A stretch of 64,000 bases of DNA from Candidatus Krumholzibacteriia bacterium. Lineage in GTDB: Bacteria; Krumholzibacteriota; Krumholzibacteriia; JAJRXK01. Positions 5,995-60,517 of this stretch are shown piece after piece. The DNA lies in the NCBI GenBank assembly GCA_041484665.1, contig JBGPIA010000009.1:64001-128000 (forward strand), given 5' to 3'. Numbering within the stretch: the first letter of the stretch is position 1; every line of letters begins with the position of its first letter. The translations under genes and the position numbers were made by a program. Below the pieces are notes generated by a model, which did no database searches, was not told where the DNA came from, and saw nothing but the letters and a program-made list of their open reading frames with translations.

Positions 5995-6004
5995 GCGGGC
6001 CCCT

Positions 6005-7971: not shown

Positions 7972-8237
7972 AGGCCCTCGACCGCGTCGATGCGGCGGCC
8001 GCTCTTCAGCACCGCGTCCACGGGGGCGTCTTGAGTCGCACTACGCGGAGCACACCAGCGCGCCCGGCTCTTCCAGGGGAATCGGTCGAGGGGGGCTGGG
8101 AGCCAAGGCGCAGCTGCGCTATCATCGGGTCCGGCGGGCCGCCCGTGGCCCAACGATCGGCCCGTCAACCCGCGACGGCCCCACCCATGTCGTGGCCGGC
8201 CGCCTCCATCCCCCACGGACGCGCGAGCGCGACGCCC

Positions 8238-42450: not shown

Positions 42451-44540
42451 CCGGTGCCGTCCCCGGTCGCTGCCCGGCGCTGCCGCAGCCGGCCGTGCTG
42501 CGGCGCGCGCTCGCCGCGCGTGCCCGCGCGCCCCGGCGCACGCTTGCGCTCGTGCTGGCCGTAGCGCTCAGCGCCGTGCTGCCCTGGGGCGCCTCCACGC
42601 CGGCCCGGGCCCAGGACCGGGTCACGCCACCGCTGATCCATCCGCCACCCGACACTGCCCCAGATCCGGCCGTGCGCGACAAGTTCATGCTGCTGCGGCG
42701 CGTCGAGGGTCTGGTGGGGCAGGGACGGCTGGACGAGGCCGTGGCGCTGCTGGAGGGCGAGCGCGCCAAGGGACCGCTCGACGAGGTGCTCGAGCGCCGG
42801 CTGATCAACCTCTACCGTGACGCCGGGCGCAACGCACAGCTGGAGGCGCTGCTCGGCGAGCGCATCCAGCGCGTCGGCAAGACCCCCGAGCTGCGCGATC
42901 TGCGGCTGTTGGCCGAGTCGCGCTTCGATCTGGGCAAGACGCAGGACGCCATCAAGACGCTCACGCGCATCGTGGACCTCGCGCCCGAGGATCCGGGGGT
43001 GCTGGAGTTGGTGGCCAAGGCGCTCGCCGAGCACGGCGAGCAGCAGCGCGCTGTGCAGCTGTTGCTGGACGCGCGCAAGCGGATCAAGCGCCCTGCAGAG
43101 TTCGCCCAGCAGCTCGGGTCGCTCTACGCACAGTTGGGACGACCGCAGGAGGCCATCAAGGAGTTGCTGGCGGTGGTTGTGGAGTCGCCGGCCAACGTGC
43201 TGCTGCTGCGCGGCCAGATCCTGGAGCTGGCCGACCACAGCATCGAACAGGGTCCGGCGCTGCTGCAGGCGGTGGAGTCCGCCGCCACCCGCCATCCCGA
43301 GGTGAAGCAGCTGGCACTGCTGGTCGCCGAGCTGCGGCTGCGCAGCGCCAACGAGGAGGGCGCCTGGAACGCGCTGGCGCCGCTGGTGCGTGACGGAACG
43401 TTCGCGCCCGAGCTGCTGCAGCTGTCGCTGGCGGCCTTGGGTGACAGCCGGCTAGCCGAGTTGGACCCCGCCCAGCGACTGCGGTCGCTCACCCTGTGCG
43501 AGCGCGTGTTGCGCGGGATGCTCGACACCCAGAAGCTCGGGCCCGGCATCGAGCCGCGCGCGTTCGACGCCCTCAACCGGGTCTACCTGTCGATCCTGGA
43601 GAACGCGGCCTTCCAGGATCTGCCGGCGGTGCGCCAGCAGGCGATGCTCGACGCCGCGCACGCGACGCTGCTGCGCATGGCCAAGCGCAGTCCCGACAAC
43701 CCGATGACCAACGCCGCGCTGCTGCGCCTGGCCCAGTTCTACGTCTCGACGCTGCACCGGCCGCAGGAGGCGATCGAGCTCTACTTGCGCCTGAGCGTCA
43801 GCCCCAACGCCGGGCGCGAGGAGCTCCAGCTCGCCCGCGTGGGGCTGGGCACGGCCTACATGGCCGCGGGCGACACCGCGCGCACGCGGGAGCTGTTCAC
43901 AGCCATGGGCAGGGACATGAGCTTCATGCCGGGACAGGGGCGTGCCCATTACTACCTGGGCATGCTCGACTTCATGGGCGGCCAGTTCAAGACCGCACAG
44001 GACCGGCTGGCCTCGGTCGCGCTGGAGGCCGCCAGCGCCGACTACACCAACGATGCCCTCGACCTGGCGCTGATCCTGGCCGAGGAGCTGCTCGATCATT
44101 CGAGGACCGAGCATCCGGCGCTGACTGCCTACGGGCAGTCCCTCTATTTCAGCGTCGTGGCCCGCCCCGACTCGCTGGAGGCGCGCCTGCGGCAGACCAT
44201 GGCCGCCTCGGCTGGCAACCTGCACGACCGGGCGCGCCTGGATCTCGCCCGGCTGCTCGCGCGCCAAGGGCAGGTGGACAAGGGCCTGGCGGAGATCGAC
44301 GCCCTCGTGAAGGACACTCCGCGGGCGCGCGTCGCCCCCGCTGCCCTGGAGCTCAAGGGAGACCTGCTGCAGAAACGCGGGGACACGGCCGGGGCGCTGG
44401 CGGCGTACGAAGCGGTGCTCACCGGACACGAGGATTATGTCTTCGCGGAAGCCGTACGGGACAAGGCGCGCACGCTGCGCCCGGGAGCCAAGCCCGGGAC
44501 GCCGCCCCCGCCGGCCGCGGTGAAGGGCGAGCTGCCGTGA
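42447..44540 (+). CDS. Exported tetratricopeptide-repeat protein
   Basis: Signal-like ARA/QD; repeated TPR-type helices (A..LG..Y..LG..EAI.EL; AHYYLG; YTNDAL.L). Confidence 0.8.
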   Translation: MTGAVPGRCPALPQPAVLRRALAARARAPRRTLALVLAVALSAVLPWGASTPARAQDRVTPPLIHPPPDTAPDPAVRDKFMLLRRVEGLVGQGRLDEAVALLEGERAKGPLDEVLERRLINLYRDAGRNAQLEALLGERIQRVGKTPELRDLRLLAESRFDLGKTQDAIKTLTRIVDLAPEDPGVLELVAKALAEHGEQQRAVQLLLDARKRIKRPAEFAQQLGSLYAQLGRPQEAIKELLAVVVESPANVLLLRGQILELADHSIEQGPALLQAVESAATRHPEVKQLALLVAELRLRSANEEGAWNALAPLVRDGTFAPELLQLSLAALGDSRLAELDPAQRLRSLTLCERVLRGMLDTQKLGPGIEPRAFDALNRVYLSILENAAFQDLPAVRQQAMLDAAHATLLRMAKRSPDNPMTNAALLRLAQFYVSTLHRPQEAIELYLRLSVSPNAGREELQLARVGLGTAYMAAGDTARTRELFTAMGRDMSFMPGQGRAHYYLGMLDFMGGQFKTAQDRLASVALEAASADYTNDALDLALILAEELLDHSRTEHPALTAYGQSLYFSVVARPDSLEARLRQTMAASAGNLHDRARLDLARLLARQGQVDKGLAEIDALVKDTPRARVAPAALELKGDLLQKRGDTAGALAAYEAVLTGHEDYVFAEAVRDKARTLRPGAKPGTPPPPAAVKGELP

Positions 44541-45913
44541 TCGCTGGCCACTCCATTCCGTCCGCGGGCTCTCGGGCGCAGAGCACGCTGGCCGTGCAGA
44601 GCACGCTGGCCGTACAGAGCAGGCTGGCCGCGCAGAGCACGCTGAGCGCGCGGAGCATGCTGGGTGCACTGGCGCTGTGCCTGCTGCTGGCCGCGGTGGG
44701 CTCGCCAGCGCTCGCGCAACAGGTGCTGGTGCCCATGGATAGCGCGCAAACCAATCACCTCAAGGCCTACGGGCTGGCGTTCAAGGCGCTCAAGATGGGG
44801 CAGCGCGTGAGCTGGCTGCTCAACTACCGCGGCGGCAGCTTCCTCATGCCCAGCTCCACGGCCCTCGATCTGGAAGCGCGCCTGATGGGTGTGACCACGC
44901 AATCCGCGTCCGCGGGCGACCTCGCGAAGATCCGCGAGACGATCGCGCACGAGAACATGGAGGAGGTCCTGCTGGAGGTGCCTCCACGCGTCGCCATCTA
45001 CGCGCCGCCTGAGTTCCAGCCCTGGGACGACGCGGTGGCGCTGGCGCTCACCTACGCCGAGATCGCCTACGACACCGTCTACGATCAGGATGTGCTGGCA
45101 GGCCGGTTGCAGGACTACGACTGGCTCCACCTGCACCACGAGGACTTCACGGGCCAGTACGGGAAGTTCTACGCCCACTTCCGCAACTTCGACTGGTACA
45201 TCCAGCAGCAGAAGATGGAGGAGGCGCTGGCGGCCTCGCTGGGCTTCCCCACGGTCCGCCAGCTGAAGGGCGCCGTCGCGCTGACCATCAAGGAGTTCGT
45301 GCTGGGCGGCGGCTTCCTGTTCGCCATGTGCTCGGCCACCGACACGTTCGACATCGCCCTCGCCGGACTCGGCGTCGACTTCGTCGAGCGGGAGTTCGAC
45401 GGCAGCCCAGCCGATCCCCAGGCACAGGAAAAACTCGACTTCTCCAAGTGCCTCGCATTCAAGGACTTCAAGATCCTCGTCGATCCCATGGCCTATGAAT
45501 TCTCCGACATCGACACCAGCGACTACGCACGCCTGCGGGGTCCGGAAGCCGACTACTTCACGCTGTTCGAGTTCTCCGCCAAGATCGATCCCGTGCCCAC
45601 CATGCTGGTGCAGTGCCATCGCAACGTGATCAACGGCTTCATGGGGCAGACCACCGGCTTCTACAAACGCGTGTTGAAGGACTACGTGGTGATCCTGGCG
45701 CAGGTGGAAGGGACCGATGAGATCAAGTATCTCCACGGCAGCGCCGGGCGCGGCACGTTCACCTTCTACGGCGGCCACGACCCCGAGGACTACACGCACG
45801 CCGTGGGGGACCCCCCGACCGATCTTGAGCTCCATCCGAACAGCCCTGGCTACCGTCTGATCCTCAACAACGTGCTGTTCCCGGCGGCCAAGAAGAAGCC
45901 CCAGAAGACCTGA
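44537..45913 (+). CDS. Exported class I glutamine-amidotransferase-like protein (family often labelled 'asparagine synthetase B' in Bacteroidota)
   Basis: PMD..Q.NHLKAYG, WLLNYRGGSF, WDDAV, YDWLHLHHEDFTGQYGKFY, GGFLFAMCSATD, GGHDPED, SPGYRLILNN.LFPAA; signal peptide ALA/QQ. Alternative start ATG 44657. Confidence 0.8.
   Translation: MIAGHSIPSAGSRAQSTLAVQSTLAVQSRLAAQSTLSARSMLGALALCLLLAAVGSPALAQQVLVPMDSAQTNHLKAYGLAFKALKMGQRVSWLLNYRGGSFLMPSSTALDLEARLMGVTTQSASAGDLAKIRETIAHENMEEVLLEVPPRVAIYAPPEFQPWDDAVALALTYAEIAYDTVYDQDVLAGRLQDYDWLHLHHEDFTGQYGKFYAHFRNFDWYIQQQKMEEALAASLGFPTVRQLKGAVALTIKEFVLGGGFLFAMCSATDTFDIALAGLGVDFVEREFDGSPADPQAQEKLDFSKCLAFKDFKILVDPMAYEFSDIDTSDYARLRGPEADYFTLFEFSAKIDPVPTMLVQCHRNVINGFMGQTTGFYKRVLKDYVVILAQVEGTDEIKYLHGSAGRGTFTFYGGHDPEDYTHAVGDPPTDLELHPNSPGYRLILNNVLFPAAKKKPQKT
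44578..44667 (+). repeat. 18-bp tandem repeat x5
   Basis: gcagagcacgctggccgt x2, acagagcaggctggccgc, gcagagcacgctgagcgc, gcggagcatgctgggtgc. Confidence 0.85.
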
Positions 45914-47402: not shown

Positions 47403-48971
47403 ATGTTCATCGTGGACAGCGAGACGATGCGGCGCGTCGACGCCGCCGCCATCGCCGCGGGCACGCCCTCGCTCACGCTCATGGAGCGCGCCGGGGCGGG
47501 CGCGACGCGCGCGATCCTGCGCCACCCTGCGTGGCTGACCGGTACGACGCTGATCGTGTGCGGCAAGGGCAACAACGGCGGCGACGGGCTGGTGGTGGCG
47601 CGCCTGCTCCAGACCCAAGGGCGGCGGGCGCAGGCCCTGCTCCTGGGCGCGCCGGACCAGCTGTCGCCCGATGCCTTGGTGAACCTGCAACGCGCGCGCG
47701 AGGCGGGGGTCGAGGTCGTGGAGATCGCGGCCGACCCGGCGGCCGGGTTGCGCGCACGGGATGCCGCCGAGCCGGGGCGGCTGCTGGTGGACGCGGTGTT
47801 GGGCACCGGCTTCAAGCCTCCGCTACACGGCGCGCTCTCGCCGCTGGTGGCGGCGATCAACGACCTGGGGCGCCGCGTGGTGGCACTGGACGTGCCCAGC
47901 GGGCTAGATGCGACCACGGGCGCGGCCGACCCTGCGGCCGTGCGCGCCGATTTCACGGTCACCTTTGGCTACGCGAAGTGGGGACTCGTGCTGCCGGTGG
48001 GACGCCGGTTCTGCGGCCGCATCGAGCGTGTCGACCTCGAGCTCCCGCGCGACGTCGTCGTGCAGGAGATCGCCGCAAGCGCGGGCCACACGGCCCTCTA
48101 CGTCGACGCGCTGCTGGCGGCGGGCTGGTGGCGCGAGCGAGCGGTGGACGTCCACAAGTACTCCGTGGGAACGGTGCTGGTGGTGGGCGGATCGGCTACC
48201 ATGTCGGGCGCGGTCAGCCTGGCCTGCCTCGCCGCGCTGCGCGCCGGCGCCGGGCTCACGGTGGCGGCGGTGCCGGGCAGCCAGCGCCTGGCGGTGGACC
48301 TGACCTGCACCGAGGTGCTCGTGCACGGCCTCGCCGAGACCGAAGCGGGCGGCATCTCGCCGTCCGAGCAGGGGCGCATCCTCGCACTGGCGCAACGTCA
48401 CGACGCGGTGCTGGTCGGGCCCGGCGCGGGCGCCGACCTGGCGACCGCGGCCATGCTCGTGGAGCTGTTGGCAGCCCTCGACCGCCCCGCGGTGGTCGAC
48501 GCGGACGCGCTCAACGCCTTCTCGCGCCTGCAGCGCGAGCCGCGCCTCCCGGCGCGCTGTGTGGTCACGCCGCACACCATGGAGCTCTCGCGGCTTTTGA
48601 ACATCGACCGCGCCCGCATCGAGGGCGACCGGGTCGAGGTCGTGCGCGCCGCCGCGCGCGAGCTGCGCGCGGTCGTACTGCACAAGGGCGCGCCGACCAT
48701 GGTCGCCGCGCCCGAAGGCGCTTTCGCCGTGATCGGGGCGGGGGGGCCGGAGCTGGCCTCCCCCGGCACCGGCGACGTGCTCGCGGGGGTGATCACCGCG
48801 CTGTTGGCGGGTGGGCACGATCCGTTCGAGGCCGCGTGCTTGGGCGCCTGGCTACACGGGCGCGCCGGCGAGCGCGTGGCGCAGCGCCTGGGCGACGCGG
48901 GCCTGCTCGCGCGCGATCTGCTCCCGGCAGTGGCGGCCGCGGCGCGCGAGGCGCAGGAGTCCCACCGGTGA
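47403..48971 (+). CDS. nnr: Bifunctional NAD(P)H-hydrate epimerase/dehydratase
   Basis: LMERAG, CGKGNNGGDG, DAVLGTG, LDVPSG; HKYSVG, GPGAG, VVDADALN, TPH, GTGDVLAG; SD GGAG. Confidence 0.93.
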   Translation: MFIVDSETMRRVDAAAIAAGTPSLTLMERAGAGATRAILRHPAWLTGTTLIVCGKGNNGGDGLVVARLLQTQGRRAQALLLGAPDQLSPDALVNLQRAREAGVEVVEIAADPAAGLRARDAAEPGRLLVDAVLGTGFKPPLHGALSPLVAAINDLGRRVVALDVPSGLDATTGAADPAAVRADFTVTFGYAKWGLVLPVGRRFCGRIERVDLELPRDVVVQEIAASAGHTALYVDALLAAGWWRERAVDVHKYSVGTVLVVGGSATMSGAVSLACLAALRAGAGLTVAAVPGSQRLAVDLTCTEVLVHGLAETEAGGISPSEQGRILALAQRHDAVLVGPGAGADLATAAMLVELLAALDRPAVVDADALNAFSRLQREPRLPARCVVTPHTMELSRLLNIDRARIEGDRVEVVRAAARELRAVVLHKGAPTMVAAPEGAFAVIGAGGPELASPGTGDVLAGVITALLAGGHDPFEAACLGAWLHGRAGERVAQRLGDAGLLARDLLPAVAAAAREAQESHR

Positions 48972-50011
48972 GGGTGCTGGGACTGGAGACCAGCTGCGAC
49001 GAGACGAGCGTCGCGTGCGTGGACGGTGACGGCGTGCGCGCCAACCTCGTGAGCAGCCAGGTCGACCTCCACGCGCGCTTCGGGGGCGTCGTCCCCGAGC
49101 TGGCGTCCCGGGCACACCTGACGAACCTGCTGCCGGTGCTCGACGCGGCGCTGCGGGCCGCGGGCTGGACCCTGGCCGACGTCGAGGGGATCGCGGCCAC
49201 CGCGGGCCCCGGCTTGATCGGCGCGGTGCTCATGGGCCTGTCCTGCGGCAAGGCGTTGGCGTGGTCGCTGGGCGTGCCGCTGGCGGGCGTGCACCACATC
49301 GAGGGGCATATCCTGGCCAACGACATCGAGACGCCGCTGGCGCTGCCGGCGTTGGTGCTGGTCGTCAGCGGCGGGCACACCGAGACGGTGCTCGTGACGC
49401 GCGTCGGAAGCTACCAGCGATTGGGCACGACGCTGGACGATGCCGCCGGAGAGACGTTTGACAAGACGGCCAAGCTCATGGGGCTGCCGTATCCGGGCGG
49501 CCCGGCCATCGAGCATCTGGCGCGCGAAGGGCGTGCGGGCGCCGTGGAGCTGCCCCGTGCGCTGCGCCAGAGCGGCAACCTGGATTTCAGCTTCAGCGGT
49601 CTGAAAACCGCGGTGCGCCTCAAGCTCGCCGCGCTGGGCGCGGCGCCCCAGCGCGCCCAGCTGGCGGATGTGGCGCGCGGTCTGCAGGACGCCGTGATCG
49701 ACACGCTGCTGGACAAGACGCGGCGGGCGCTTGCGGCGTGCGCGGATCCCAGGCTGTGCCCGCAACCGCTGCGGGGGCTCTACCTGGCGGGCGGGGTGGC
49801 GGCGAACGGGCCGCTGCGCGAGACCATGGCGCAGCTGGCGGGCGAGCGGGACCTCGTGTTCGTCCCGCCGCCGTTGGCCTACTGCACGGACAACGCGGCC
49901 ATGATCGCCTGGGCCGGCCGACGCCGGCTGCTGCTTTGCGGCGGGGACCCCCTGGACCTGCCGGCCTTCGCGCGCGCCGGCCTGGTTTCCTGGGCGGCGC
50001 AGACGCCCTAG
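48968..50011 (+). CDS. tsaD: tRNA threonylcarbamoyltransferase TsaD
   Basis: LGLETSCDET, GGVVPELASR, HHIEGH, VSGGHT, DDAAGETFDK, FSFSGLKT, GGVAAN, TDNAAMI. Confidence 0.96.
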   Translation: MRVLGLETSCDETSVACVDGDGVRANLVSSQVDLHARFGGVVPELASRAHLTNLLPVLDAALRAAGWTLADVEGIAATAGPGLIGAVLMGLSCGKALAWSLGVPLAGVHHIEGHILANDIETPLALPALVLVVSGGHTETVLVTRVGSYQRLGTTLDDAAGETFDKTAKLMGLPYPGGPAIEHLAREGRAGAVELPRALRQSGNLDFSFSGLKTAVRLKLAALGAAPQRAQLADVARGLQDAVIDTLLDKTRRALAACADPRLCPQPLRGLYLAGGVAANGPLRETMAQLAGERDLVFVPPPLAYCTDNAAMIAWAGRRRLLLCGGDPLDLPAFARAGLVSWAAQTP

Positions 50012-50269: not shown

Positions 50270-51247
50270 TTGAAAGAAACCATTCTCGTCGTCGACGACG
50301 AGCCCCACATCCGGAAGATCCTGAAGTTCCTGCTGGAGCAGAACGACTTCCAGGTGATCACCGCCGCCAATGGCGAGGAGGCCCTGGCCGCAGCCCGCGG
50401 CAACCTGCCCGAGCTGGTGCTGCTGGACCTCATGATGCCCAAGATGGACGGCTTTGAGGTCTGCCGGCGGCTGCGCTCCGATTACCGCACGAGCCAGATC
50501 CCCATCATCATCGTGACGGCCAAGGGTGAGGTCACCGAGCGCGTGCGCGGCCTCAAGGGCGGGGCCAACGACTACCTGACCAAGCCCTACGACCACAACG
50601 AGCTGATCGCGCGCGTGCGCAACATGCTCGATTGGAGCCGGGTGCAGCGGCAGGCCAATCCGCTCACCGGGCTACCGGGCAACCAGGCGATCGAGACCGA
50701 GCTGCAGCGGCGGATCGACAACGGCGAGCCGTTCGCCTTCATGTACATCGACGTCGACAACTTCAAGGGCTACAACGACAACTACGGCTACTCCAAAGGC
50801 GACGAGGCGATCCGCTTCGTGGCCGGCCTGCTGCGCGAGTGCTCCGTGGCCCTGGGCGGCGTCGACACCGACTTCATCGGGCACATCGGCGGCGATGACT
50901 TCGTGGTGATCAGCTCGCCGGCGCACGCCGACGTGCTGGCCCAGAGCATCGTCGACCGCTTCGACCGCGAGTCCTACCGGCTGTTCGAGGCGCACGACCT
51001 CGAGCGCGGTTACCTCGAGGTCCGCAACCGATTCGGCGGGACCAACACGGTCCCATTTATCACCCTCACCATCGCCGTGGTGACCGACCGGGGTGGCACC
51101 TTCCGCCATTGGGCCAAGGTGAGCGACGTTGCCGCGGAGCTGAAGGCCTACGGCAAGTCGCTGAAGGGCTCGGTCGTGGTGAAGGAGCGCCGCAGCCACG
51201 ACGCCACCGACCAGCCGGTCGGCAGTTCGGGAACCGCGGCTTCCTGA
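50270..51247 (+). CDS. Response regulator with REC + GGDEF-family (GGDDF) domain
   Basis: ILVVDDE...LLDLMMP..TAK..YLTKPY; ANPLTGLPGN, YIDVDNFKGYNDNYG, GHIGGDDF. TTG start after GAGGA. Confidence 0.92.
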   Translation: MKETILVVDDEPHIRKILKFLLEQNDFQVITAANGEEALAAARGNLPELVLLDLMMPKMDGFEVCRRLRSDYRTSQIPIIIVTAKGEVTERVRGLKGGANDYLTKPYDHNELIARVRNMLDWSRVQRQANPLTGLPGNQAIETELQRRIDNGEPFAFMYIDVDNFKGYNDNYGYSKGDEAIRFVAGLLRECSVALGGVDTDFIGHIGGDDFVVISSPAHADVLAQSIVDRFDRESYRLFEAHDLERGYLEVRNRFGGTNTVPFITLTIAVVTDRGGTFRHWAKVSDVAAELKAYGKSLKGSVVVKERRSHDATDQPVGSSGTAAS

Positions 51248-51278
51248 GCGCGCCGCGCCTTGGGGTGGGAGGAGATCC

Positions 51279-54200
51279 GTGACGAACGTTGGGCAGACCT
51301 TCACGAGCTTCCGATTCCTCGTGCGCAGCGTGCGCTGGGTCGAGCTCGCGATCAGCTGCCTGATCGTGTTCTTCGCCCGGGCCGTCAGCCACCTGGAGTT
51401 CCAGGTTCTGCCGGTGGCCTTGATCTTCGGACTGGGCTTCCTGTGGAACGTGGCTTTCTGGTACGCCGGCCGCCGCCACCTGCTCGAGGAGCGCGGCCTG
51501 GCCGGGGCGCGCCTCTTGATGTGGAGCTGGGTGGTGGCCGACGTCGTCACCAACCTGCTCATCATCGCCTTCACGGGCGTCACCAGCAGCCCGTTCCTGT
51601 TCTTCCTCGTGTTCCCGGTGATCCTCAGCACGGTCGCCCTGGGGCGGCCGGCCAGCTGCTACGGGGTTGCGATTGGCTCGACGTTGGGGCTGGCGGCCAT
51701 CTGGGCCATGGACCGAGCCGGGAGCATCCCGCACTTCCGCAGCTACCCGGCGCTGTCGGGGCAGATCTTCTTCCAGCCCGACGTGGCCGCGGGGATCTTC
51801 CTGATGGCGGGCGCGGTGCTGTCGCTGCTCGTCCACATGGTTTTCCGCTTCCGGCCGAACTTCTTCATCTTCCAGGAGAGCTTCCGCGAGGGGCGGTTCC
51901 GCATCCACAGCTTCCGCGCCGGCGACATCCAGGAGCTGCGCCTGGAAGAGGTGGAGGCGATCGGTCCCGAGGACCTGCTGGAGGAGGTGGTGCAGAACCT
52001 CACCACCAACCCGGCGGTGGTCTTCGCTGCGGCAGTGGTCTTTCCCGCAGGCGACGACACCGTGGGCGGCGCGGGCGCGGAATGGCACGCCGGGCTGACG
52101 CGCCAGCGCATCGTGTGCGTCACGCGCCGCCAGGTGTTGGCCACCTGGAGCGAATTCCACTCCGACCGCAGCGAACTGTTCCGGCACATGCGCTACGCCG
52201 AGACGGGCGATCTGTGGGAGGGACCCTTCTCGCTCCTGCAGCGCGACGGCCTCTTCACCCAGTTCGACGACGCGGAGAGCTACCTGGCCACCCCCATCGC
52301 GCAGGACGGACGCAGCGTGGTGGTGCTCATCGCCGGGCTGCGTCATCCGGTGCAGAGCCGCAACGAGGTGGTGTTGCACCTGCTGAACGTGGCGGCCCAG
52401 CTCAAGCCCTTGCTGGTGGCCGAGACGCGCTTGTCGAGCCTGCGCGGTGAGCTGTCGTCGCTCCACGACCAGAACGACTCGCTCACCCGCCTGAACAAGA
52501 TGCAGAACGATTTCGTGAGCATCGCCAGCCACGAGCTGAAGACGCCGCTGACCTCCATCATGGCGTACACCGACGCGCTGATCATGAACGTGGACAACCC
52601 GGCATTCAACGAGCGGCGGGAGTTCCTCCAGGTGGTGCGCGACGAGACCAACCGGCTGCTGCGCATGGTGAACCGCATCCTCGACTTCTCCCAGATCGAG
52701 TTCGGCCAGCGCAGTCTCAAGCGCAGCCGTCTGCAGCTCAAGGCGCTCATCGACGACAGCCTCACCACCATGCGCCACGAGCTCGACCGCAAGCAGATCG
52801 CGGTCGATGTCAAACTGCCGGCGGTGCTCCCCCGCGTGGACGCCGATCCTGACCTCATGAAGCAGGTGCTGCTCAACCTGCTGAACAACGCCTGGAAATT
52901 CAGTCCGCAGGGCGGGACGATCACGATCGCGGCGCGGGAGGGCTCCACCGCCCTGGAGGTCGCAATCAAGGACGAGGGCCCCGGGATCCCCGATGACGAG
53001 GTGGAGAACATCTTCAAGCAGTTCTACCGCGTGCGCCGCAAGGACGGCGAGACGCCCGAGGGGAGCGGCCTGGGGCTGACCATCGTCCGCAACATCGTCG
53101 AGCTGCACGGGGGCTGCGTCCGGGTCGACGGGGGGCACGGGCGCGGCGCCACGTTCACCTTCACGATCCCCAAGGAGCAGTGCCTCAACGATCGGCCCGA
53201 GACGGTGCTGGGCGAGCTGACCAAGCGGCCCGAGTTCGCCCACATGATGAAACTGCTCGTGCGCATGGTCGCCGACTACATGGACTGCAAGATCGTGTCG
53301 GTGATGCTCGTGTCGTCCGACCGCAAGCAGCTCTACGTCCAGGTCGCCTACGGGCTGGACGAGGAGATCGTGCGCGACACCCGGGTGACCATGGGCGAGG
53401 GGATCGCGGGGCGCGTGGCCGCCAACGGTCGCCCGCTGCTCATCGAGAACGTGGAGGACCTCGACGGGCGCCCCGGTGGCAACAAGTCGCAGTACGAGAC
53501 GAGCTCGCTGATCAGCGTCCCGCTCGTCATGAACGACGAGATCGTGGGCGTGATCAACTGCAACAACAAGGTGACCGGCGAGCCGTTCTACGCCGACGAT
53601 CTGAGCCTGCTGGTGACCCTCACCGAGAAGGTGACGTTGGCCCTGTCGCGTGCCCTGGAGTTCGAGGACTCGCGCGAGACACTGCAACGCACCGTGCGCG
53701 CCCTGCAAGCCCTGGTGGATCTGCACGGCACCGACGCGCGGGCCACCCGCCGCGCCGTGCGGTACGCCATGGAGTTGGGCCGGCGCATGGGACTCACGCG
53801 GCACCAGATCCTGGCGCTGCAGTACGCCTTCGTGATCCACGACGTAGGGATGATCCGCCAGGACCGCGAGCTACTGCGCAAGCGCGGCACGCTTTCGCCC
53901 GAGGAGCGCAAGCTGGTGCGCAACCATCCTGTCGACGGGGTGGAGCTCGTGGAGCCGTTCCTCTCGGCCGACGAGCTCGAGGAGGTCATCCGCTATCACC
54001 ACGAGCGCATCGACGGGACCGGATACCCGCAGGGCCTGATCGGGGAGCACATCCCACTTGCGGCGCGCATCGTCTCGGCGGTGGATGCCTACGACTCCAT
54101 GACGTCGCCCCGGCCCTACCGCCGCACGCTGCGCCCGCACGAGGCGGCCGAGGAGCTGGCGGAGAACGCGGGCTCGCAGTTCGATCCGGAAGTCGTCCGC

Positions 54201-54302
54201 CTGTTCCTGGACGTGCTGGCGGAGAACGGTGAGCTGTCGCGCGATGAGTACCAACGTCTCAAGGACGGTGAACGGTGGCTACGCCCGGCGTCCTTATCGT
54301 AG
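51279..54302 (+). CDS. Membrane hybrid: TMs-GAF-like-HisKA-HATPase-GAF-HD-GYP
   Basis: About five TMs; SHELKTPL, NLLNNAWKF, DEGPG, GSGLGL; GAF GEGIAGRV..VPL..GVINCNNK..F..DD; HDVG..HP..HHER.DG.GYP..D.YD..RPY. Confidence 0.92.
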   Translation: MTNVGQTFTSFRFLVRSVRWVELAISCLIVFFARAVSHLEFQVLPVALIFGLGFLWNVAFWYAGRRHLLEERGLAGARLLMWSWVVADVVTNLLIIAFTGVTSSPFLFFLVFPVILSTVALGRPASCYGVAIGSTLGLAAIWAMDRAGSIPHFRSYPALSGQIFFQPDVAAGIFLMAGAVLSLLVHMVFRFRPNFFIFQESFREGRFRIHSFRAGDIQELRLEEVEAIGPEDLLEEVVQNLTTNPAVVFAAAVVFPAGDDTVGGAGAEWHAGLTRQRIVCVTRRQVLATWSEFHSDRSELFRHMRYAETGDLWEGPFSLLQRDGLFTQFDDAESYLATPIAQDGRSVVVLIAGLRHPVQSRNEVVLHLLNVAAQLKPLLVAETRLSSLRGELSSLHDQNDSLTRLNKMQNDFVSIASHELKTPLTSIMAYTDALIMNVDNPAFNERREFLQVVRDETNRLLRMVNRILDFSQIEFGQRSLKRSRLQLKALIDDSLTTMRHELDRKQIAVDVKLPAVLPRVDADPDLMKQVLLNLLNNAWKFSPQGGTITIAAREGSTALEVAIKDEGPGIPDDEVENIFKQFYRVRRKDGETPEGSGLGLTIVRNIVELHGGCVRVDGGHGRGATFTFTIPKEQCLNDRPETVLGELTKRPEFAHMMKLLVRMVADYMDCKIVSVMLVSSDRKQLYVQVAYGLDEEIVRDTRVTMGEGIAGRVAANGRPLLIENVEDLDGRPGGNKSQYETSSLISVPLVMNDEIVGVINCNNKVTGEPFYADDLSLLVTLTEKVTLALSRALEFEDSRETLQRTVRALQALVDLHGTDARATRRAVRYAMELGRRMGLTRHQILALQYAFVIHDVGMIRQDRELLRKRGTLSPEERKLVRNHPVDGVELVEPFLSADELEEVIRYHHERIDGTGYPQGLIGEHIPLAARIVSAVDAYDSMTSPRPYRRTLRPHEAAEELAENAGSQFDPEVVRLFLDVLAENGELSRDEYQRLKDGERWLRPASLS

Positions 54303-54658
54303 AGGACGAGCAGCCGCTGGCCCGCGTCCTCGCCTATGCCTTCAACAACGAGGGCTATCGCGTCGAGCTCGCCAGCGACGGCATCGAGTGCATGAATAAG
54401 ATCGCGACCTTCGTGCCCGACGTGGTCGTGATGGATATCATGATGCCCAAGCTTGATGGCATCGAGACCATGAAGCTGCTGCGTCAGAACCAGCTGCAGC
54501 GCGATCTAGTCATCGTGGCGCTGTCGGCGCGCTCCTCGCGCAGCGACCGGGAAACCGCTCTGGCGGCCGGCGCGAACATCTTCATGAAGAAGCCGTTCGC
54601 CATCGCCCGCCTGATGGAGAGCGTCGAGCAGCTGCTGGCCAGCGAGCGCAGCCCCTGA
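54275..54658 (+). CDS. Single-domain response regulator (REC)
   Basis: VLIVEDE, VMDIMMPKLDG, ALSA, KKPF; overlaps the 3' end of the upstream kinase by 28 nt. Confidence 0.88.
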   Translation: MATPGVLIVEDEQPLARVLAYAFNNEGYRVELASDGIECMNKIATFVPDVVVMDIMMPKLDGIETMKLLRQNQLQRDLVIVALSARSSRSDRETALAAGANIFMKKPFAIARLMESVEQLLASERSP

Positions 54659-54676
54659 GCGGCCAGGCGGACGAAC

Positions 54677-57600
54677 GTGCACCCCTCCCTCCCCCCGACG
54701 TTCCCCGGAGCGACTCCGCTCGTCGTGCGGCTGCTGGTGGCCGCCCTCGCATTGGGTGTTGCGCTGGCCGGCGGGCGCGCCTGGCGCGCGACGCGGCGTG
54801 CGTGCCTGGGTGCCCTCGCAGTGGGGGCGGCGCTGCTCCTTCTGGACGATGCGGTGGGCGCGGTGCTGTCCCACGGGCAGCTCGCGTTCCAAGGCACCGG
54901 CTGGCTGATCGCCTCGGCGCTGGTGCAGGCTGCCGGCCTTAGCCTGTTGGCCTGGGGAGCGGGCCACGCCGGGCAGGCCGAGAACTCCACGTGGCTGTTG
55001 GGCTGGCTCACCATTGCGTCCTGCGCGTTCGGCCTGCTGTTGGGTGTCCTGCCGTCGATCGCCTGGCAGCTGTTGGGCGCGCGCGCGCCCGGCGAGCCCG
55101 CTCCGCAGCCGGAGTGGACGCTGTTGCTCGGCCTGGGCTGCACGGCCGCGCTCTTGTCCAGCCTGCGTCACCGCGCGCTCGCGCGCAGCGGCCACGCGCT
55201 GCAGGAGCGCGTGCACGAGCTCGGGGCCGCCCAGGAGCAGTCGCAGCAGCGCGAGACCGCGCTGCAGCAGCAGTACGAGCAGGCCGCGCAGGGGCGCCGT
55301 CAGCAGCAGGACAGCGTCGAGCAGCTCGCGCGCCGGGCGGCCAACCTCCAGGCCGTGCTGCAGAGCTCGCTCTCGCTGAATCGCCGCCAGGAGCTGGGCC
55401 AGGTGTTGGAGGCGGTGGTGGAGTCCGCGCACGAGCGCCTCGGCCAACCGCGCGTGCTGCTGCGGCTGTACAACTCGCGCACCCATCTGTTCGAGGCGCG
55501 GGCCTTCGCCGGCCTGCCGGAGAACGAGGTCCGCGAGCTGAGGAACCGCGACGTGACGATGGAGGACTTCCTGTCGGCGGCCCGCGCCGGCGCCGGCTTG
55601 GGGGGGTGCGCGGTGGTCGATCCTTGGGCGCCGCCGCCGCCGTCCAGCTCGCCGTTGGGCTGGCGGGCGGGGCGCCAGCTGGTCGTGCCCATTCGCGGCG
55701 ACGACGGCGCGGTGCTGGGGTATCTGGGCGTGGACGAGCCCAACGGCGTCCAGGTGCCCGCCGCCGAGACGGCCGAGCTGCTGGAGGCGCTTGCCAGCCA
55801 GGCCGCCATCGCCATCCAGAACGCCCAGCTCCACGGCCAGCTCGAGCGCAAGAACCTCGAGGTCTCCATGGCCAACGAGAAGCTGCGGGACCTCAATCGC
55901 CTCAAGAGCAACTTCGTCGCCACCGTCAGCCATGAGCTGCGCACGCCGTTGACCTCCATCAAGGCGTACAGCGACACCCTGCAGGCGGCGCTGGATGACA
56001 TGGAGCCGCAGACGGTGCGGGAGTTCGTCTCGGTGATCTCGGCGGAGAGCGAGCGCCTCACCGGCGTGATCGACGACATCCTCGACGTCAGCCGCCTGGA
56101 GAGCGGCCGCGCCCCCATGGTCAAGGAGAGCTTCAACTTCAGCGCGCTCTGCCAGGAGGCGGGCGTCCGCATGGACGCACAGTTCAAGGCCAAGGGGCTG
56201 CGCCTGCGCCTGGAGTGCCCGCCGTCGGAGGTGGTGCTGTCGGCCGACCGTTCCGCCATCGAGCAGCTGCTGGTCAACCTGCTGGACAACGCCCTCAAAT
56301 TCACCCCGGAGGGGGGCGAGGTGCGCCTGCACCTCGAGGAGGAAGTGAGCCTGGCGCGTCTGGTGGTGGAGGACTCGGGGATCGGCATTCCCGAAGAGGA
56401 GATGGAGCGCATCTTCGATCGCTTCTACCAGGTGGACGGCTCGACCACGCGCGCCTACGGCGGGCAGGGGCTGGGCCTGGCCATCTGCCGCGACATCGTC
56501 GAGTGGCACGACGGCCGGATCTGGGTGGAGCGAGCCGGTGGCCGCGGCACGCGCTTCGTCGTGCTGCTGCCCCGCAAGGAGCTCGTGATCCACAGCAACC
56601 GCGAGGACAGCTCGGACGTCTCGGAGCGGATGCAGCGCGAGGAGTTCCTGCAGCTGCTCACCACGCTCACGGCGGAGCTGATGGGCACGCGAATCGCCTC
56701 GATCATGCTCGTGGATCCGGCCTCCGACGCCCTGCGCATCGAGGCGGCGGTGGGGCTGGAGGAGGAGGTCGTCCACGGCGCGCGCCTGCGCAAGGGCGAG
56801 GGGATCGCCGGGCGTGTCTGGAGCGAGGGGCGGTCGATCCTGGTGCACGACCTGCGCGGCGACGCGCGCTTCGCCGGCCGCATGAACGACGTGCAGTACA
56901 GCACGCGCAGCCTGCTGTCCGCCCCGCTGCGGCGTGGCACCCACGTGTTCGGCGTCGTAAACGTGAATAACAAGATCAACGGCCAGGTATTCGACGAGGA
57001 CGACCGGCTGCTGCTGGAGGCGCTCGGCGAGCGCCTGGTGAAGGCCTTCGACAGCCTGGAGGCCTACCGCGTCGGCCACCACCGCCTGGTGGCGGCCCGT
57101 TCCGCCCTGCGCGCGATCCTCGACGTGAGTCGCGACCGTTGGTCGTCGCTGCGCGAGCTGGTGGCGCGCAGCGGCCTGGACGCGGCGCGCCGCCTCGGCA
57201 TGCACGAGGACGACCTGCGGGCGCTGGCCTACGTGCTCAAGACCTACGACCTCGGTCTGGCGCGGGTGGGAGAGCAGATCCTGCGCAAGATCTCGCCCTT
57301 GTCGGCCGAGGACCGCGAGCGCATCAACGACCACGTGCGAGCGGGGGCGGAGCTGGCCACCGAGGTGGAGCCGCTGGCCAAGGTGCGCCAGATCCTCTAC
57401 CACCATCACGAGAACGTGGACGGCAGCGGCTATCCTGACGGCCTGGCGGGAGAGGCGATCCCGGTGGGCGCGCGCCTGGTTCGCCTGACCGACGTCTTCG
57501 GCGCCCTGCTGCACGACCGGCCCTTCCGCCGAGCGCTCTCGTTGGACGAGGCGGTTGCGCTCATCCGCGAAGGGGTCGGCCGGCGATTCTGCCCGCGCGT

Positions 57601-57778
57601 CTCGTCGGCCTTCCTGGCCGCCGTGGAGGGCAAGCGCCGGGAGTTCCACACCGCGCTCACCGTGCTGGGCGGCCGGTCCGCGACAGCGGCCCCTTCCACG
57701 GCGTCCGCGCTGCCCGGTGCGCCCACGCCGCCAAGCGGTCCCCCGGTGCCGGCCGGCACCGGGGGAGGAGCCAGCTGA
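54677..57778 (+). CDS. Membrane hybrid: TMs-coiled coil-GAF-HisKA-HATPase-GAF-degenerate HD-GYP
   Basis: SHELRTPL, NLLDNALKF, DSGIG, GQGLGL; GAF GEGIAGRV..NVNNK..FDEDD; YDLG in place of HDIG, HHE.VDGSGYP. Confidence 0.92.
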   Translation: MHPSLPPTFPGATPLVVRLLVAALALGVALAGGRAWRATRRACLGALAVGAALLLLDDAVGAVLSHGQLAFQGTGWLIASALVQAAGLSLLAWGAGHAGQAENSTWLLGWLTIASCAFGLLLGVLPSIAWQLLGARAPGEPAPQPEWTLLLGLGCTAALLSSLRHRALARSGHALQERVHELGAAQEQSQQRETALQQQYEQAAQGRRQQQDSVEQLARRAANLQAVLQSSLSLNRRQELGQVLEAVVESAHERLGQPRVLLRLYNSRTHLFEARAFAGLPENEVRELRNRDVTMEDFLSAARAGAGLGGCAVVDPWAPPPPSSSPLGWRAGRQLVVPIRGDDGAVLGYLGVDEPNGVQVPAAETAELLEALASQAAIAIQNAQLHGQLERKNLEVSMANEKLRDLNRLKSNFVATVSHELRTPLTSIKAYSDTLQAALDDMEPQTVREFVSVISAESERLTGVIDDILDVSRLESGRAPMVKESFNFSALCQEAGVRMDAQFKAKGLRLRLECPPSEVVLSADRSAIEQLLVNLLDNALKFTPEGGEVRLHLEEEVSLARLVVEDSGIGIPEEEMERIFDRFYQVDGSTTRAYGGQGLGLAICRDIVEWHDGRIWVERAGGRGTRFVVLLPRKELVIHSNREDSSDVSERMQREEFLQLLTTLTAELMGTRIASIMLVDPASDALRIEAAVGLEEEVVHGARLRKGEGIAGRVWSEGRSILVHDLRGDARFAGRMNDVQYSTRSLLSAPLRRGTHVFGVVNVNNKINGQVFDEDDRLLLEALGERLVKAFDSLEAYRVGHHRLVAARSALRAILDVSRDRWSSLRELVARSGLDAARRLGMHEDDLRALAYVLKTYDLGLARVGEQILRKISPLSAEDRERINDHVRAGAELATEVEPLAKVRQILYHHHENVDGSGYPDGLAGEAIPVGARLVRLTDVFGALLHDRPFRRALSLDEAVALIREGVGRRFCPRVSSAFLAAVEGKRREFHTALTVLGGRSATAAPSTASALPGAPTPPSGPPVPAGTGGGAS

Positions 57779-57852
57779 CGGTCCCGTCACGCCCCAACCA
57801 CGACCCACGCCGTGCATCGGAAGGACGCGCAGGACAACAGGAGTGAAGGGAC

Positions 57853-58233
57853 ATGAGCCGCAAGCTGCTCGTCGTGGACGACGAGATGTACATCCTCAAT
57901 ATCCTGGATTTCACCCTCGGCAGCGAAGGCTTCGAGGTCATCACGGCTGCCAACGGCGAGGAGGCGCTGCGCAAGGTGAACCAGCTGCGACCCGACCTGG
58001 TCGTGCTGGACGTCATGATGCCCAAAGTGGACGGCTTCGAGGTCTGCCGGGCCATCAAGTCGAAGACCGAGACCTCCCACATCCCCGTGATCCTGCTCAC
58101 GGCACGTGACCGTGCCGCCGATCGAAAGAAGGGCGAGGAGGTCCGGTGCGATGCGTACATGACCAAGCCCTTCAATCCCCAGAAGCTCGTCGAGCGCATC
58201 CGCGAGCTGATCGGATCGCCCGCCAGCGACTGA
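57853..58233 (+). CDS. Single-domain response regulator (REC)
   Basis: LLVVDDE, VLDVMMPKVDG, LLTAR, MTKPF. Confidence 0.92.
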   Translation: MSRKLLVVDDEMYILNILDFTLGSEGFEVITAANGEEALRKVNQLRPDLVVLDVMMPKVDGFEVCRAIKSKTETSHIPVILLTARDRAADRKKGEEVRCDAYMTKPFNPQKLVERIRELIGSPASD

Positions 58234-58258
58234 CACGCGCGGCCGGGGTGTGCTGGGC

Positions 58259-58264
58259 TATACT
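58259..58264 (+). promoter_or_regulatory. -10 element positioned for a leaderless priA transcript
   Basis: TATACT followed 6 nt later by ATG 58271; no SD. Confidence 0.5.
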
Positions 58265-58270
58265 GCGCCC

Positions 58271-60517
58271 ATGCGCGCGCAGCGGCAGGCCGCCCAAGCC
58301 AAGGCGAGCAGTCCCCTCGGGCAGGGCACCCACGTCGAGGTGGTCCTGCCCGTTCCCGTTTTCCATCCCTTTACCTACCGGGTCCCGCCCGGGCTGCTGG
58401 CCGCGCCGACGGACGCCGCGGCAGCGGAAGATCCGCCCCGCGCGCCCGACCCAATTGCGGCACCCCGGTCGGCGGCGTCGCGCGCGCCCGCGGAATCGGC
58501 CCGGCTCGAATCGGCCCCGCCGCTGCCGACGCTCGTGCCCGGCACCGTGGTCCGCGTGCCGCTGGGGCGCCGCACGTTGACAGGGGTCGTGCTGCGCCTC
58601 GTCCCACCGTCGCAGCGGCGCGGCCTGCGCGACGTGCATGCGATCCTGCCGGCGCCCTACCGGCTGGGTGCCCCCGCGCTGCAGCTGGCCGCCTGGATCG
58701 CCGACTACTACGCCTGCGCGCTCGGCGAGGCGGTCGCGCTCTTGCTGCCTCCCATGCCCGCCACCGCCGCTCGCCGCTCGCCGCTCCTGCCGGCGCAGGG
58801 TCAAGCCGAGGCCGGCCCGTCCCTCAGCGCGGCGCAGGAGCAGGCGGTGCACGCGATCTGCGCGTCCGTGAGCGCCCACCGGTACGCGAGCTTCCTACTG
58901 CACGGCGTCACCGGGAGTGGCAAGACCGAGGTCTACCTGCGCGCGATCGAGGCGGCGATGGCGCACGGGCGCGGCGCGATCGTGCTCCTGCCGGAGATCT
59001 CGCTCACGCCCCAGACCATGGCGCGCATCGCGGCGCGCTTCCCCGGACGCGTCGCGCCCTACCACAGTCGCCTCAGCCACGGTGAGCGCTGCGCGGTGTG
59101 GGAGGCCGCCGCGCGCGGCGAGATCTCGGTGGTGGTGGGGGCGCGCAGCGCGGTGTTCGTGCCGGTGCGGGAGCTGGGCCTGATCGTCGTCGACGAGGAG
59201 CACGAGGGTAGCTACAAGGCCGACGACCGGCCGCGCGCCCACGCGCGTGACGTCGCGCTGATGCGCGGGTCCCTGGAGGGCGCCCCGGTCGTGCTGGGAT
59301 CGGCCACGCCCAGCCTGGAGAGTTGGCACAACGCGCGCCGGGGCAAGCACCAGCTGCTCTCCCTGCCGCAGCGGCTGGTCGCCGAGGCGATGCCATGCGT
59401 GGAGGTGATCGACCGGCGCACCGGGCGCGCGGGCCACGTTGGCGCGGAGGGTCCCTCCGGCGCGGACGGTTCCTCCGACGCGTCCCGCGCGGACGGCGCG
59501 GGGAACGACCAGGACGAGCTCGGCCTGATCGGCCCGCGGCTGGGCGCGGCCCTGGAGGAGGCGCTCGCCCGTGGCGAGCAGTCCATCGTCTTGCACAACC
59601 GCCGCGGCTTCGCCCGCTACCTCCAGTGCCGCGCGTGCGGGTACGTGCTGCAGTGCGCGCACTGCGATATCAGCCTCACCTGGCACCTGCGCGACGACCG
59701 CATGCACTGCCACTACTGCGGCTACCGCGCCGCGCGCCCGGCCGCCTGCGGTGGCTGCGGCGCCACGCCGATGCGTCCGCGCGGTGTGGGAACGCAGCGC
59801 GTAGAGGTGGCGTTGCAAGCACGCCTGCCACAGGCTCGCATCCTGCGCCTGGACCAGGACACGACGGCGGGGAAGCGCGGCCACCAGCGCCTGCTCGACC
59901 AGTTCGCGGCTGGGGAGGCCGACCTGCTGGTGGGGACGCAGATGGTGGCCAAGGGGCTGCATTTCCCGAGGGTCACCGTCGTGGGAGTCGTGGACGCCGA
60001 CGCGGGTCTGCACTTTCCCGATTTCCGCGCCCACGAGCGCGCGTTCCAGCTGCTGGCGCAGGTGGCCGGGCGCAGTGGCCGGGTCGGGCCCGGGCGCGTC
60101 GTCCTGCAAACCTGGGACCCCGACCACCGCGTCCTGGGCTACGCCCGCGGCCACGACGTGATCGGCTTCCTGGAGGAGGAGCTCTCGCAACGGCGCGCTC
60201 TGGGCTATCCGCCGTGGCGGCGCCTGGCAGCCATCCTGGCCACCGCGCCGCAGGAGGAGGTGCTCGACGCGCTGCTGGCGGCCCTGGGGCATCGGCTTCC
60301 CGGGGTGCTCCCACCCGCAGTCCAGCTGCTGGGGCCGGCGCGGGCGGTGCTGGCGCGGATCAATCGCCGTTACCGGGGACAGATCCTGCTCAAGGGCAAC
60401 CTGGGGACGGCGGGCAAGCGCGCTGTGCTGGACCTTCTCGAGCAGGTGCGCGAGCGGACGCCCGGGGGGTGGCGCGCCGACCTGGCGCTGGACGTGGACC
60501 CCCAGCAGCTGCTCTGA
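58271..60517 (+). CDS. priA: Primosomal protein N' (replication restart helicase)
   Basis: FTYRVP..VRVPLG, HGVTGSGKTEVY, PEISLTPQ, DEEHE.SYK, GSATP, four CxxC pairs, GTQMVAKG, QVAGRSGR, LDVDP. Confidence 0.96.
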   Translation: MRAQRQAAQAKASSPLGQGTHVEVVLPVPVFHPFTYRVPPGLLAAPTDAAAAEDPPRAPDPIAAPRSAASRAPAESARLESAPPLPTLVPGTVVRVPLGRRTLTGVVLRLVPPSQRRGLRDVHAILPAPYRLGAPALQLAAWIADYYACALGEAVALLLPPMPATAARRSPLLPAQGQAEAGPSLSAAQEQAVHAICASVSAHRYASFLLHGVTGSGKTEVYLRAIEAAMAHGRGAIVLLPEISLTPQTMARIAARFPGRVAPYHSRLSHGERCAVWEAAARGEISVVVGARSAVFVPVRELGLIVVDEEHEGSYKADDRPRAHARDVALMRGSLEGAPVVLGSATPSLESWHNARRGKHQLLSLPQRLVAEAMPCVEVIDRRTGRAGHVGAEGPSGADGSSDASRADGAGNDQDELGLIGPRLGAALEEALARGEQSIVLHNRRGFARYLQCRACGYVLQCAHCDISLTWHLRDDRMHCHYCGYRAARPAACGGCGATPMRPRGVGTQRVEVALQARLPQARILRLDQDTTAGKRGHQRLLDQFAAGEADLLVGTQMVAKGLHFPRVTVVGVVDADAGLHFPDFRAHERAFQLLAQVAGRSGRVGPGRVVLQTWDPDHRVLGYARGHDVIGFLEEELSQRRALGYPPWRRLAAILATAPQEEVLDALLAALGHRLPGVLPPAVQLLGPARAVLARINRRYRGQILLKGNLGTAGKRAVLDLLEQVRERTPGGWRADLALDVDPQQLL

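Follow-up and report, generated by a model that had tools for sequence, protein, structure and literature searches.

Does a histidine kinase that carries an HD-GYP domain at its C-terminus use this domain to destroy a cyclic dinucleotide or to read it? The question is raised by a five-gene operon in a 64,000-nucleotide stretch of DNA from a Candidatus Krumholzibacteriia bacterium (contig JBGPIA010000009.1, positions 64,001 to 128,000; hereafter the window), in which a REC-GGDDF protein is followed by kinase A, a single-domain receiver, kinase B and a second single-domain receiver (Table 1). The initial annotation had called it a self-contained circuit whose kinases phosphorylate the cyclase and the receivers and whose appended domains sense or degrade the dinucleotide. 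All five open reading frames were found on the plus strand, in the order and over the span given there and with spacings of 31, -28, 18 and 74 nucleotides, and Pfam matched their domains above the curated cut-offs: REC with GGDEF once, HisKA with HATPase_c, GAF and HD_5 twice, and REC alone twice. Pfam gave no DNA-binding domain in any of the five proteins, in agreement with the annotated lack of a DNA-binding output. The reading that we favour, with moderate confidence, is a pair of dinucleotide-sensing kinases with shared receivers and a doubtful cyclase, in which the messenger would be read and not destroyed. (Loci, genomes, proteins and families carry our own labels L, G, P and f.)

The residues of the two HD-GYP tails were numbered after PmGH of Persephonella marina, mapped via a canonical HD-GYP protein of the same genome, and counted in 22 kinase A and 22 kinase B sequences, leaving out the likely duplicate loci L042 and L044. 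K225 is replaced by methionine in every A tail and by leucine (17) or methionine (5) in B, and the loop with D183, E185 and H189 is unconserved in 22/22 of either kind. H221 is kept in all A tails and is tyrosine in 21/22 B tails. D222, H250, H276, H277, E278, G284, P286 and D305 are invariant in both sets and in the best 120 of 781 cousin proteins (see below), and Y285 is present in 21/22 A tails. R314 is found in 18/22 A and 19/22 B, and position 317 is arginine or lysine in 22/22 A and 16/22 B. The kinase A tail of the window keeps H221, D222, H250, H276, H277, D305, GYP and an RPYR motif, with K225 changed to M; it also has D308, which occurs in 5/22 A tails overall. The kinase B tail has YD for HD, L for K225 and G for D308, and keeps D222, H250, H276, H277, D305, GYP and an RPFR motif. 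Within the family the tail is conserved at 63-68%, as against 58-68% for the kinase core. In a control sample (the 150 best representatives of 1.84 billion), K225 was missing from 76 of 79 kinase-HD fusions, and the D/H/H/D/K set and the N-terminal loop were kept in 19 of 20 kinase-free GAF-HD-GYP proteins, the twentieth being a kinase A fragment.

The D183A, H189A, H221A and K225A variants of PmGH are essentially inactive, and PmGH with iron at the G-site alone binds uncleaved c-di-GMP (cyclic di-GMP) through Y285, R314 and K317 (PMC4159591). Likewise DvhD, an inactive HD-GYP protein, binds c-di-GMP, and its stalks splay on binding (PMC13090378). Because K225 and the D183/H189 loop are gone from 22/22 A and 22/22 B tails, and alanine at these positions abolishes PmGH activity, degradation of the dinucleotide by the appended domains, as annotated, is unlikely. 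By sequence, the tails are not members of the active HD-GYP family; they are likely to be dinucleotide receptors, not phosphodiesterases. Kinase A of the window keeps the equivalents of DvhD Y621, R650, Y652, M646, K582 and L577 (alignment-mapped numbering), and kinase B is more variable here.

Could the HD-GYP domain of kinase A nevertheless be a slow two-metal phosphodiesterase, so that the kinase switches the cyclase on and removes its product locally? H221, D222, H250, H276, H277 and D305 are kept in 22/22 A tails, with D308 in the window genome; RpfG lacks H189 too, and Lysobacter RpfG without the equivalent of this residue is reported to be active (bioRxiv 2021.11.05.467447); and no EAL domain was found in the window genome, which is 93.65% complete, nor in 23/30 relatives. 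However, the methionine at 225 in 22/22, the absence of D183 and the rarity of D308 speak against hydrolysis, given what K225A and D183A do to PmGH, and canonical-looking HD-GYP proteins are encoded elsewhere in the window genome, as are HD_5 matches outside the operon in all 30 relatives. We regard a slow phosphodiesterase as quite improbable.

A different proposal is that the tails serve for docking or localisation independently of nucleotide, with a metal-stabilised fold that holds on to the cyclase, to other GGDEF proteins or to the partner kinase. Metal ligands and GYP indeed vary less than the guanine contacts, the inactive HD-GYPs HnoD and RpfG act through protein contact (bioRxiv 2021.11.05.467447), and the dependence of a kinase A GAF domain on an unlinked Hypr cyclase, described below, could reflect direct GAF-GAF binding. 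Yet the base-reading position is glutamine, a known cGAMP-type state, in 6/6 kinase B tails of families f5 and f8, and arginine or lysine in 22/22 A tails, a pattern suggesting that a ligand pocket is under selection. Pure docking appears rather unlikely to us.

Both kinases are HisKA-class sensor kinases by residue and profile, with intact catalytic boxes: neither the phospho-histidine nor the N, G1 or G2 residues vary in 22/22 A and 22/22 B, the phospho-histidine is followed by E or D, and the ExxT phosphatase motif is present in 21/22 A and 22/22 B. The two align only from residue 344 (A) or 332 (B) to about 980, at 34% identity (E 1e-109), and their N-termini cannot be aligned, which bears out their description as paralogues in the C-terminal two-thirds with dissimilar membrane N-termini. 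Pfam is blind to the N-terminal GAF of kinase A; an AlphaFold model (64 homologues, mean predicted local distance difference test (pLDDT) score 80) has a helical bundle and, after it, an alpha/beta fold resembling GAF at about residues 230-380, and the Atlas feature neighbours are GAF proteins, which we take as a lead only. Foldseek matched the model to kinase cores and to PmGH; none of the solved structures spans the whole (best TMq 0.23). By a crude hydropathy count, the membrane N-termini differ among relatives, with no membrane segment in kinase B of L021 and L022 and in kinase A of 3/4 derived-f2 loci.

By sequence, the receivers are phosphorylatable. They were paired with the kinases by the established rules of two-component partner specificity. 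The helix after the phospho-histidine reads TPLT(S/A)IxAY in both kinases, and the cyclase REC and the last REC have the helix 1 pattern xIxxILxFxL in common, from which the middle REC differs. Because the H-box helices are near-identical and receiver helix 1 is shared, both kinases are likely to serve the cyclase REC and the last REC; the annotated route from the kinases to the operon receivers is likely to this extent. A heterodimer of the two kinases had also been envisaged, and it can be dismissed as an obligatory form because L039, L040 and L057 carry one kinase only.

Whether the REC-GGDDF protein is an active cyclase is uncertain. D327, K332, N335, D344, D370 and K442 are invariant in its 23 orthologues, and the protein has a complete GGDEF fold (AlphaFold/Foldseek; pLDDT 92.6). 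All 23, however, have E371 changed to D, R300 to N, R366 to H and H340 to Y, so that the Glu at the fourth motif position, which is the general base, and the cross-dimer Arg, found in 94% of cyclases (PMC6456294), are both missing. The RxxD I-site is absent as well (R in 1/23). The annotated receiver-diguanylate cyclase therefore stands as to REC and GGDEF fold, and falls as to the canonical catalytic set. Of other GGDDF proteins, GSU1937 is active in vivo and PA3258 (GGDDF/EAL) has no c-di-GMP phenotype (PMC8835794); further ones appear in the literature without activity data. Any product of the operon protein is predicted to be c-di-GMP, because the Asp at its Watson-Crick/guanine-specificity site (23/23) drives GTP specificity. 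A cGAMP synthase like GSU1937 was ruled out by this Asp in place of Ser. Activity would also follow if some genomes had no cyclase besides the GGDDF protein; this was ruled out, as all 30 genomes checked have others.

These features leave room for another role, that of a phosphorylation-controlled nucleotide-binding effector without feedback, in which case the kinases would read dinucleotide from unlinked cyclases. The four substitutions, the general-base role of the missing Glu, the wide conservation of the missing Arg, the example of PA3258 and the other canonical cyclases in 30/30 genomes all point this way; the six invariant residues, the complete fold and the activity of GSU1937 point to an enzyme. 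We consider the effector possible and somewhat doubtful.

In the dinucleotide-sensing scheme, the two kinases would act as kinase and phosphatase on a common pair of receivers, those of the cyclase and the last gene. The GGDDF protein would be switched on by phosphorylation and, provided that it has activity, would make c-di-GMP without I-site feedback. In the HD-GYP pocket, with its single metal or scarcity of metal, a bound dinucleotide would force the stalk helices apart as it does in DvhD, and this movement would shift the kinase/phosphatase balance or the localisation of the protein through the adjacent GAF domain. The GAF of kinase A would add an input tied to an unlinked Hypr cyclase, either its product 3'3'-cGAMP (3'3'-cyclic GMP-AMP) or the cyclase as such. 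Output would probably run through protein-protein contacts of the free receivers together with the dinucleotide pool.

The architecture is real, conserved and apparently undescribed. At E <= 1e-70, a kinase A tail query matched 164/181 Krumholzibacteriota genomes and a kinase B query 163/181, and all four of the nearest loci with a name belong to Candidatus Krumholzibacteriota. Conservation of the operon was borne out by 25 loci (the window's own included), which have the same gene order between tsaD and priA. Both kinases are present in 23 of them, the last receiver in all 25 and the middle receiver in 15. L039, L040 and L057 are the one-kinase loci, L058 has no kinase, and the f3 loci (L059-L061) have a kinase without a tail and both receivers; kinase B is the more stably kept paralogue. 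The assembly is of metagenome type, with 54 contigs, and one might suspect that the fusions arose in assembly or gene calling, or that they are a local accident in decay. Across the phylum, though, the fusions are open and free of internal stops, and 25 loci agree in gene order; the region is also covered by contigs from three runs not marked as its possible source, and pieces among those listed cross from HATPase to GAF and from GAF to HD in each kinase. The artefact that the initial annotation had named as a possible flaw is excluded by the 164/181 genomes and these junction-spanning contigs, and to the broader suspicion we attach practically no weight.

The A and B subtrees of a GAF-HD tree, which largely mirror one another by family, are a further point against an accident. 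Kinase B (20 rows) and the cousin family (8 rows) each form one supported group, and canonical GAF-HD-GYP proteins lie beyond a branch with support 99/97. The mirrored subtrees and the separation of the canonical proteins indicate an old A/B duplication followed by vertical inheritance. A kinase-core tree, from which a motif filter had removed the three intact fusions, gave no clear answer on descent of the f6 and f3 kinases from kinase A.

Two side observations concern these loci. Nine of them (L026-L034), all without the middle receiver, contain a small extra HisKA-type kinase of about 270-290 amino acids, sensor-less and without the ExxT motif, between the cyclase and kinase A (e.g. L029:12262-13137, minus strand). 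Family f3 has a priA-linked cyclase whose N-terminal motif is eroded and, elsewhere, a further operon in which REC-GGDDF is combined with other kinases (L059-L061, L063-L065).

The circuit is not self-contained, as it had been called. Full-length GGDEF proteins and HD_5 matches occur outside the operon in 30/30 genomes checked, which embeds the module in a wider network; the window genome itself has, besides the operon, three other GGDEF, three MshEN, one PilZ and flagellin matches. In addition, the second GAF domain of kinase A tracks one of these other cyclase genes, an unlinked GAF-GGDEF gene for a predicted Hypr (GacA-type) cyclase that adjoins nucleotide-sugar genes in the window genome, outside the window. 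Its signature is complete (Ser348, Tyr304 and GGDEF with Asp third), and its best PDB match is 6D9M (GacA), with the same three features. A strict DNA pattern found Hypr in 83/181 genomes (f1 10/10, including the window's own; f4 33/35; f5 16/21; f7 8/8; f8 11/12; f9 1/1; f2 4/78; f3 0/5; f6 0/11). As this pattern overlooked f3 and two f5 copies, absences were scored at the protein level in 80 chosen genomes, with 0/11 in f6, 3/56 in f2 and 4/5 in f3.

In the Hypr-positive loci, the second GAF of kinase A has an intact NNK motif and 45-71% identity to that of the window (18/18; three f2 regions, G109, G105 and G093, are left out of this comparison). Where no Hypr was found, NNK is lost and identity falls to 15-32% in 12/15 loci; kinase core (39-50%), HD (35-43%) and kinase B GAF (34-47%) of these same loci are not eroded. 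The three exceptions with an intact GAF come from Hypr-rich families, in genomes of 80-91% completeness, and two f2 genomes that at first seemed exceptions, G100 and G101, have a partly eroded kinase A GAF. A second hint comes from kinase B, which has RxYQ in 6/6 f5 and f8 loci (RPYR in A and RPFR in B in the window genome); an RxYQ-type change is reported to shift HD-GYP specificity to cGAMP (bioRxiv 2021.11.05.467447). The tie between the GAF of kinase A and the Hypr cyclase, via 3'3'-cGAMP or via the protein itself, is a lead and not a result, because the two hints concern different kinases. The Hypr gene, which most families of the phylum conserve, suggests 3'3'-cGAMP signalling in Krumholzibacteriota. 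One may speculate that the twin kinases form a comparator, the HD-GYP pockets reading c-di-GMP and the GAF of A, with the RxYQ pocket of B in two families, reading 3'3'-cGAMP. We think it unlikely that all of this holds; if it did, cGAMP would have protein receptors within everyday bacterial signalling, and the pair would be the first histidine kinases known to balance c-di-GMP against cGAMP, within a core circuit passed on by vertical inheritance.

Several observations weigh against the dinucleotide-sensing reading. Five to six metal ligands are invariant in the tails, beyond the need of a pure receptor (DvhD binds metal-free), and the equivalents of the DvhD contacts Y523 and E668 are not conserved. 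The RxxR motif of kinase B is lost or altered (GPYR in f4 and f7, RxGR in part of f1), and the reported activity of Lysobacter RpfG counts on the same side. The feedback step may fail because the cyclase is without the general-base Glu and the cross-dimer Arg in 23/23. The tail is dispensable for the core pathway, because cyclase and last REC persist where the kinases are absent (L058) or tail-less (f3). Finally, the correlation of Hypr with the GAF domain comes down to about two independent lineage-level events (derived f2 and f6, the latter of uncertain orthology), and f3 has Hypr in most of its genomes yet no tail.

In Caulobacter, the PleC/DivJ-DivK-PleD circuit has a single-domain receiver and a receiver-cyclase that are shared by two kinases. 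For the operon this is an analogy of wiring only. Membership in the PleD, DivJ and DivK families was rejected, as scores stayed below the NCBIfam curated cut-offs (PleD 179 vs 474; DivJ 133 vs 1000; DVU0259/DivK 75 vs 160). SgmT of Myxococcus xanthus (GAF-HK-REC-degenerate GGDEF, HK being the histidine kinase) resembles the operon kinases in its N-terminal GAF and in a C-terminal c-di-GMP-enzyme domain that serves as receptor (PMC3509222); the operon kinases differ from it by a GAF-HD-GYP tail in place of GGDEF, the lack of an internal receiver, the presence of two paralogues and the absence of a DigR-like DNA-binding regulator. CckA, ShkA and RavS are similar to our proposal in that a second messenger sets the kinase/phosphatase balance, but they bind c-di-GMP at CA/PAS or pseudo-receiver domains and not at an appended HD-GYP domain (PMC8534201).

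On the side of the tails, DvhD of Desulfovibrio vulgaris (PDB 9RBZ/9RC0) likewise has a catalytically deficient HD-GYP domain behind a helical stalk (PMC13090378). It has lost the metal ligands and kept the lysine after HD, whereas the operon tails keep five to six ligands and have lost the lysine, and its output is control of a periplasmic protease, where the operon tails sit on kinases. PmGH (PDB 4MCW/4MDZ) matches the GAF-stalk-HD-GYP part by sequence and fold, but has no kinase and possesses D183, E185, H189 and K225. GacA of Geobacter, a Hypr GGDEF protein and 3'3'-cGAMP synthase (PMC6456294), is like the unlinked gene in Ser, cross-dimer Tyr and GGDEF; the unlinked gene has GAF in place of REC. 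The operon GGDDF cyclase is not Hypr, with Asp where GacA has Ser.

The annotation knew no characterised protein in which a kinase core is fused to GAF-HD-GYP, and the openly searchable literature, subscription papers being outside its scope, likewise gave no description of such a fusion or of signalling in this phylum. The running text of a survey of HD-GYP proteins contains neither 'HisKA' nor 'HATPase' (bioRxiv 2021.11.05.467447), and the portion of PMC1183210 covered shows no such fusion. Relatives exist beyond the phylum: a Geoalkalibacter protein query gave 781 matches at E <= 1e-30, of which the best 120 have GAF-HisKA-GAF-HD with no HATPase_c match and the same YDLGL degeneration. Named cousins among the matches listed come from Geobacter, Geotalea, Desulfuromonas and Nitrospirota (e.g. 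P0121, P0133, P0142); no named Geobacter homologue was found among the papers listed. Pairing of the cousin family with a GGDDF gene was ruled out in the four loci seen. In two of these four, the cousin gene is convergent to a sigma-54 regulator/kinase pair (L067, match 6001-8250; L068, match 6001-8226), which we take to be PrsR/PrsK-like, as in PEP-CTERM systems. Three further proteins, P0276, P0286 and P0343, are independent HisKA-HATPase-PocR-GAF-GAF-HD-GYP fusions that have a nearly or fully intact active-site signature and are nested among canonical enzymes; they are candidates for true kinase-phosphodiesterases.

If the tails are receptors, the operon would be a new coupling of cyclic dinucleotides to two-component signalling, with a retired HD-GYP domain on a working kinase, kept in most of the phylum and among housekeeping genes. 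Which residues separate hydrolysis from binding can be tested directly on the one-metal pocket that is retained, and the cousins in culturable Geobacter, Geotalea and Desulfuromonas make the receptor idea testable in tractable organisms. The Hypr link, should it hold, would point to a protein receptor for 3'3'-cGAMP; the characterised effectors of this messenger in Geobacter are riboswitches (PMC6456294). A search for RF01051 riboswitches in five genomes gave no match, and its controls gave none either. Within the window, Rfam had no match, and a promoter/terminator scan returned a chance-level result.

Table 1. Position of the operon, its domains, its flanking genes and the unlinked Hypr gene (window coordinates unless a contig or locus is named).
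Feature	Position	Strand	Basis or remark
tsaD, upstream flank	48968..50011	+	kept in 23/25 loci; other two stop at contig edge
REC-GGDDF protein (receiver and atypical GGDEF-fold cyclase), 325 aa (amino acids)	50270..51247	+	Pfam; GGDDF motif at 50888
Kinase A, 1007 aa: membrane bundle, GAF-like, HisKA, HATPase_c, GAF, degenerate HD-GYP (HDVGM)	51279..54302	+	
Kinase A catalytic core (H418, E419, T422; N, G1, F, G2 boxes intact)	52503..53177	+	Pfam, residue counts
Kinase A second GAF (NNK...F..DD)	53235..53651	+	
Kinase A HD-GYP tail	53742..54194	+	
Middle single-domain receiver, 127 aa	54275..54658	+	Pfam
Kinase B, 1033 aa: membrane segments, GAF, HisKA, HATPase_c, GAF, degenerate HD-GYP (YDLGL)	54677..57778	+	
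Kinase B HD-GYP tail	57116..57598	+	
Last single-domain receiver, 126 aa	57853..58233	+	Pfam
priA, downstream flank	58250..60517	+	kept in 25/25 loci
Unlinked GAF-GGDEF, predicted Hypr cyclase	G000:C2:196292-196762 (locus L111:6284-7264)	-	YNYRY, GHLAGS, GGDEF

Elsewhere in the window genome, a degenerate (RDIGM) HD-GYP protein and a canonical REC-GAF-HD-GYP protein lie in tandem (G000:C22:55503-59664), and close tandem HD_5 pairs are found in many relatives; the two are possibly an inhibitor/enzyme pair. Within the window, upstream of the genes for a CAAX protease, nnr and tsaD, positions 42447-44540 encode a TPR protein and positions 44540-45913 a conserved 457-amino-acid protein, which has no NCBIfam match and is 64-77% identical in relatives.

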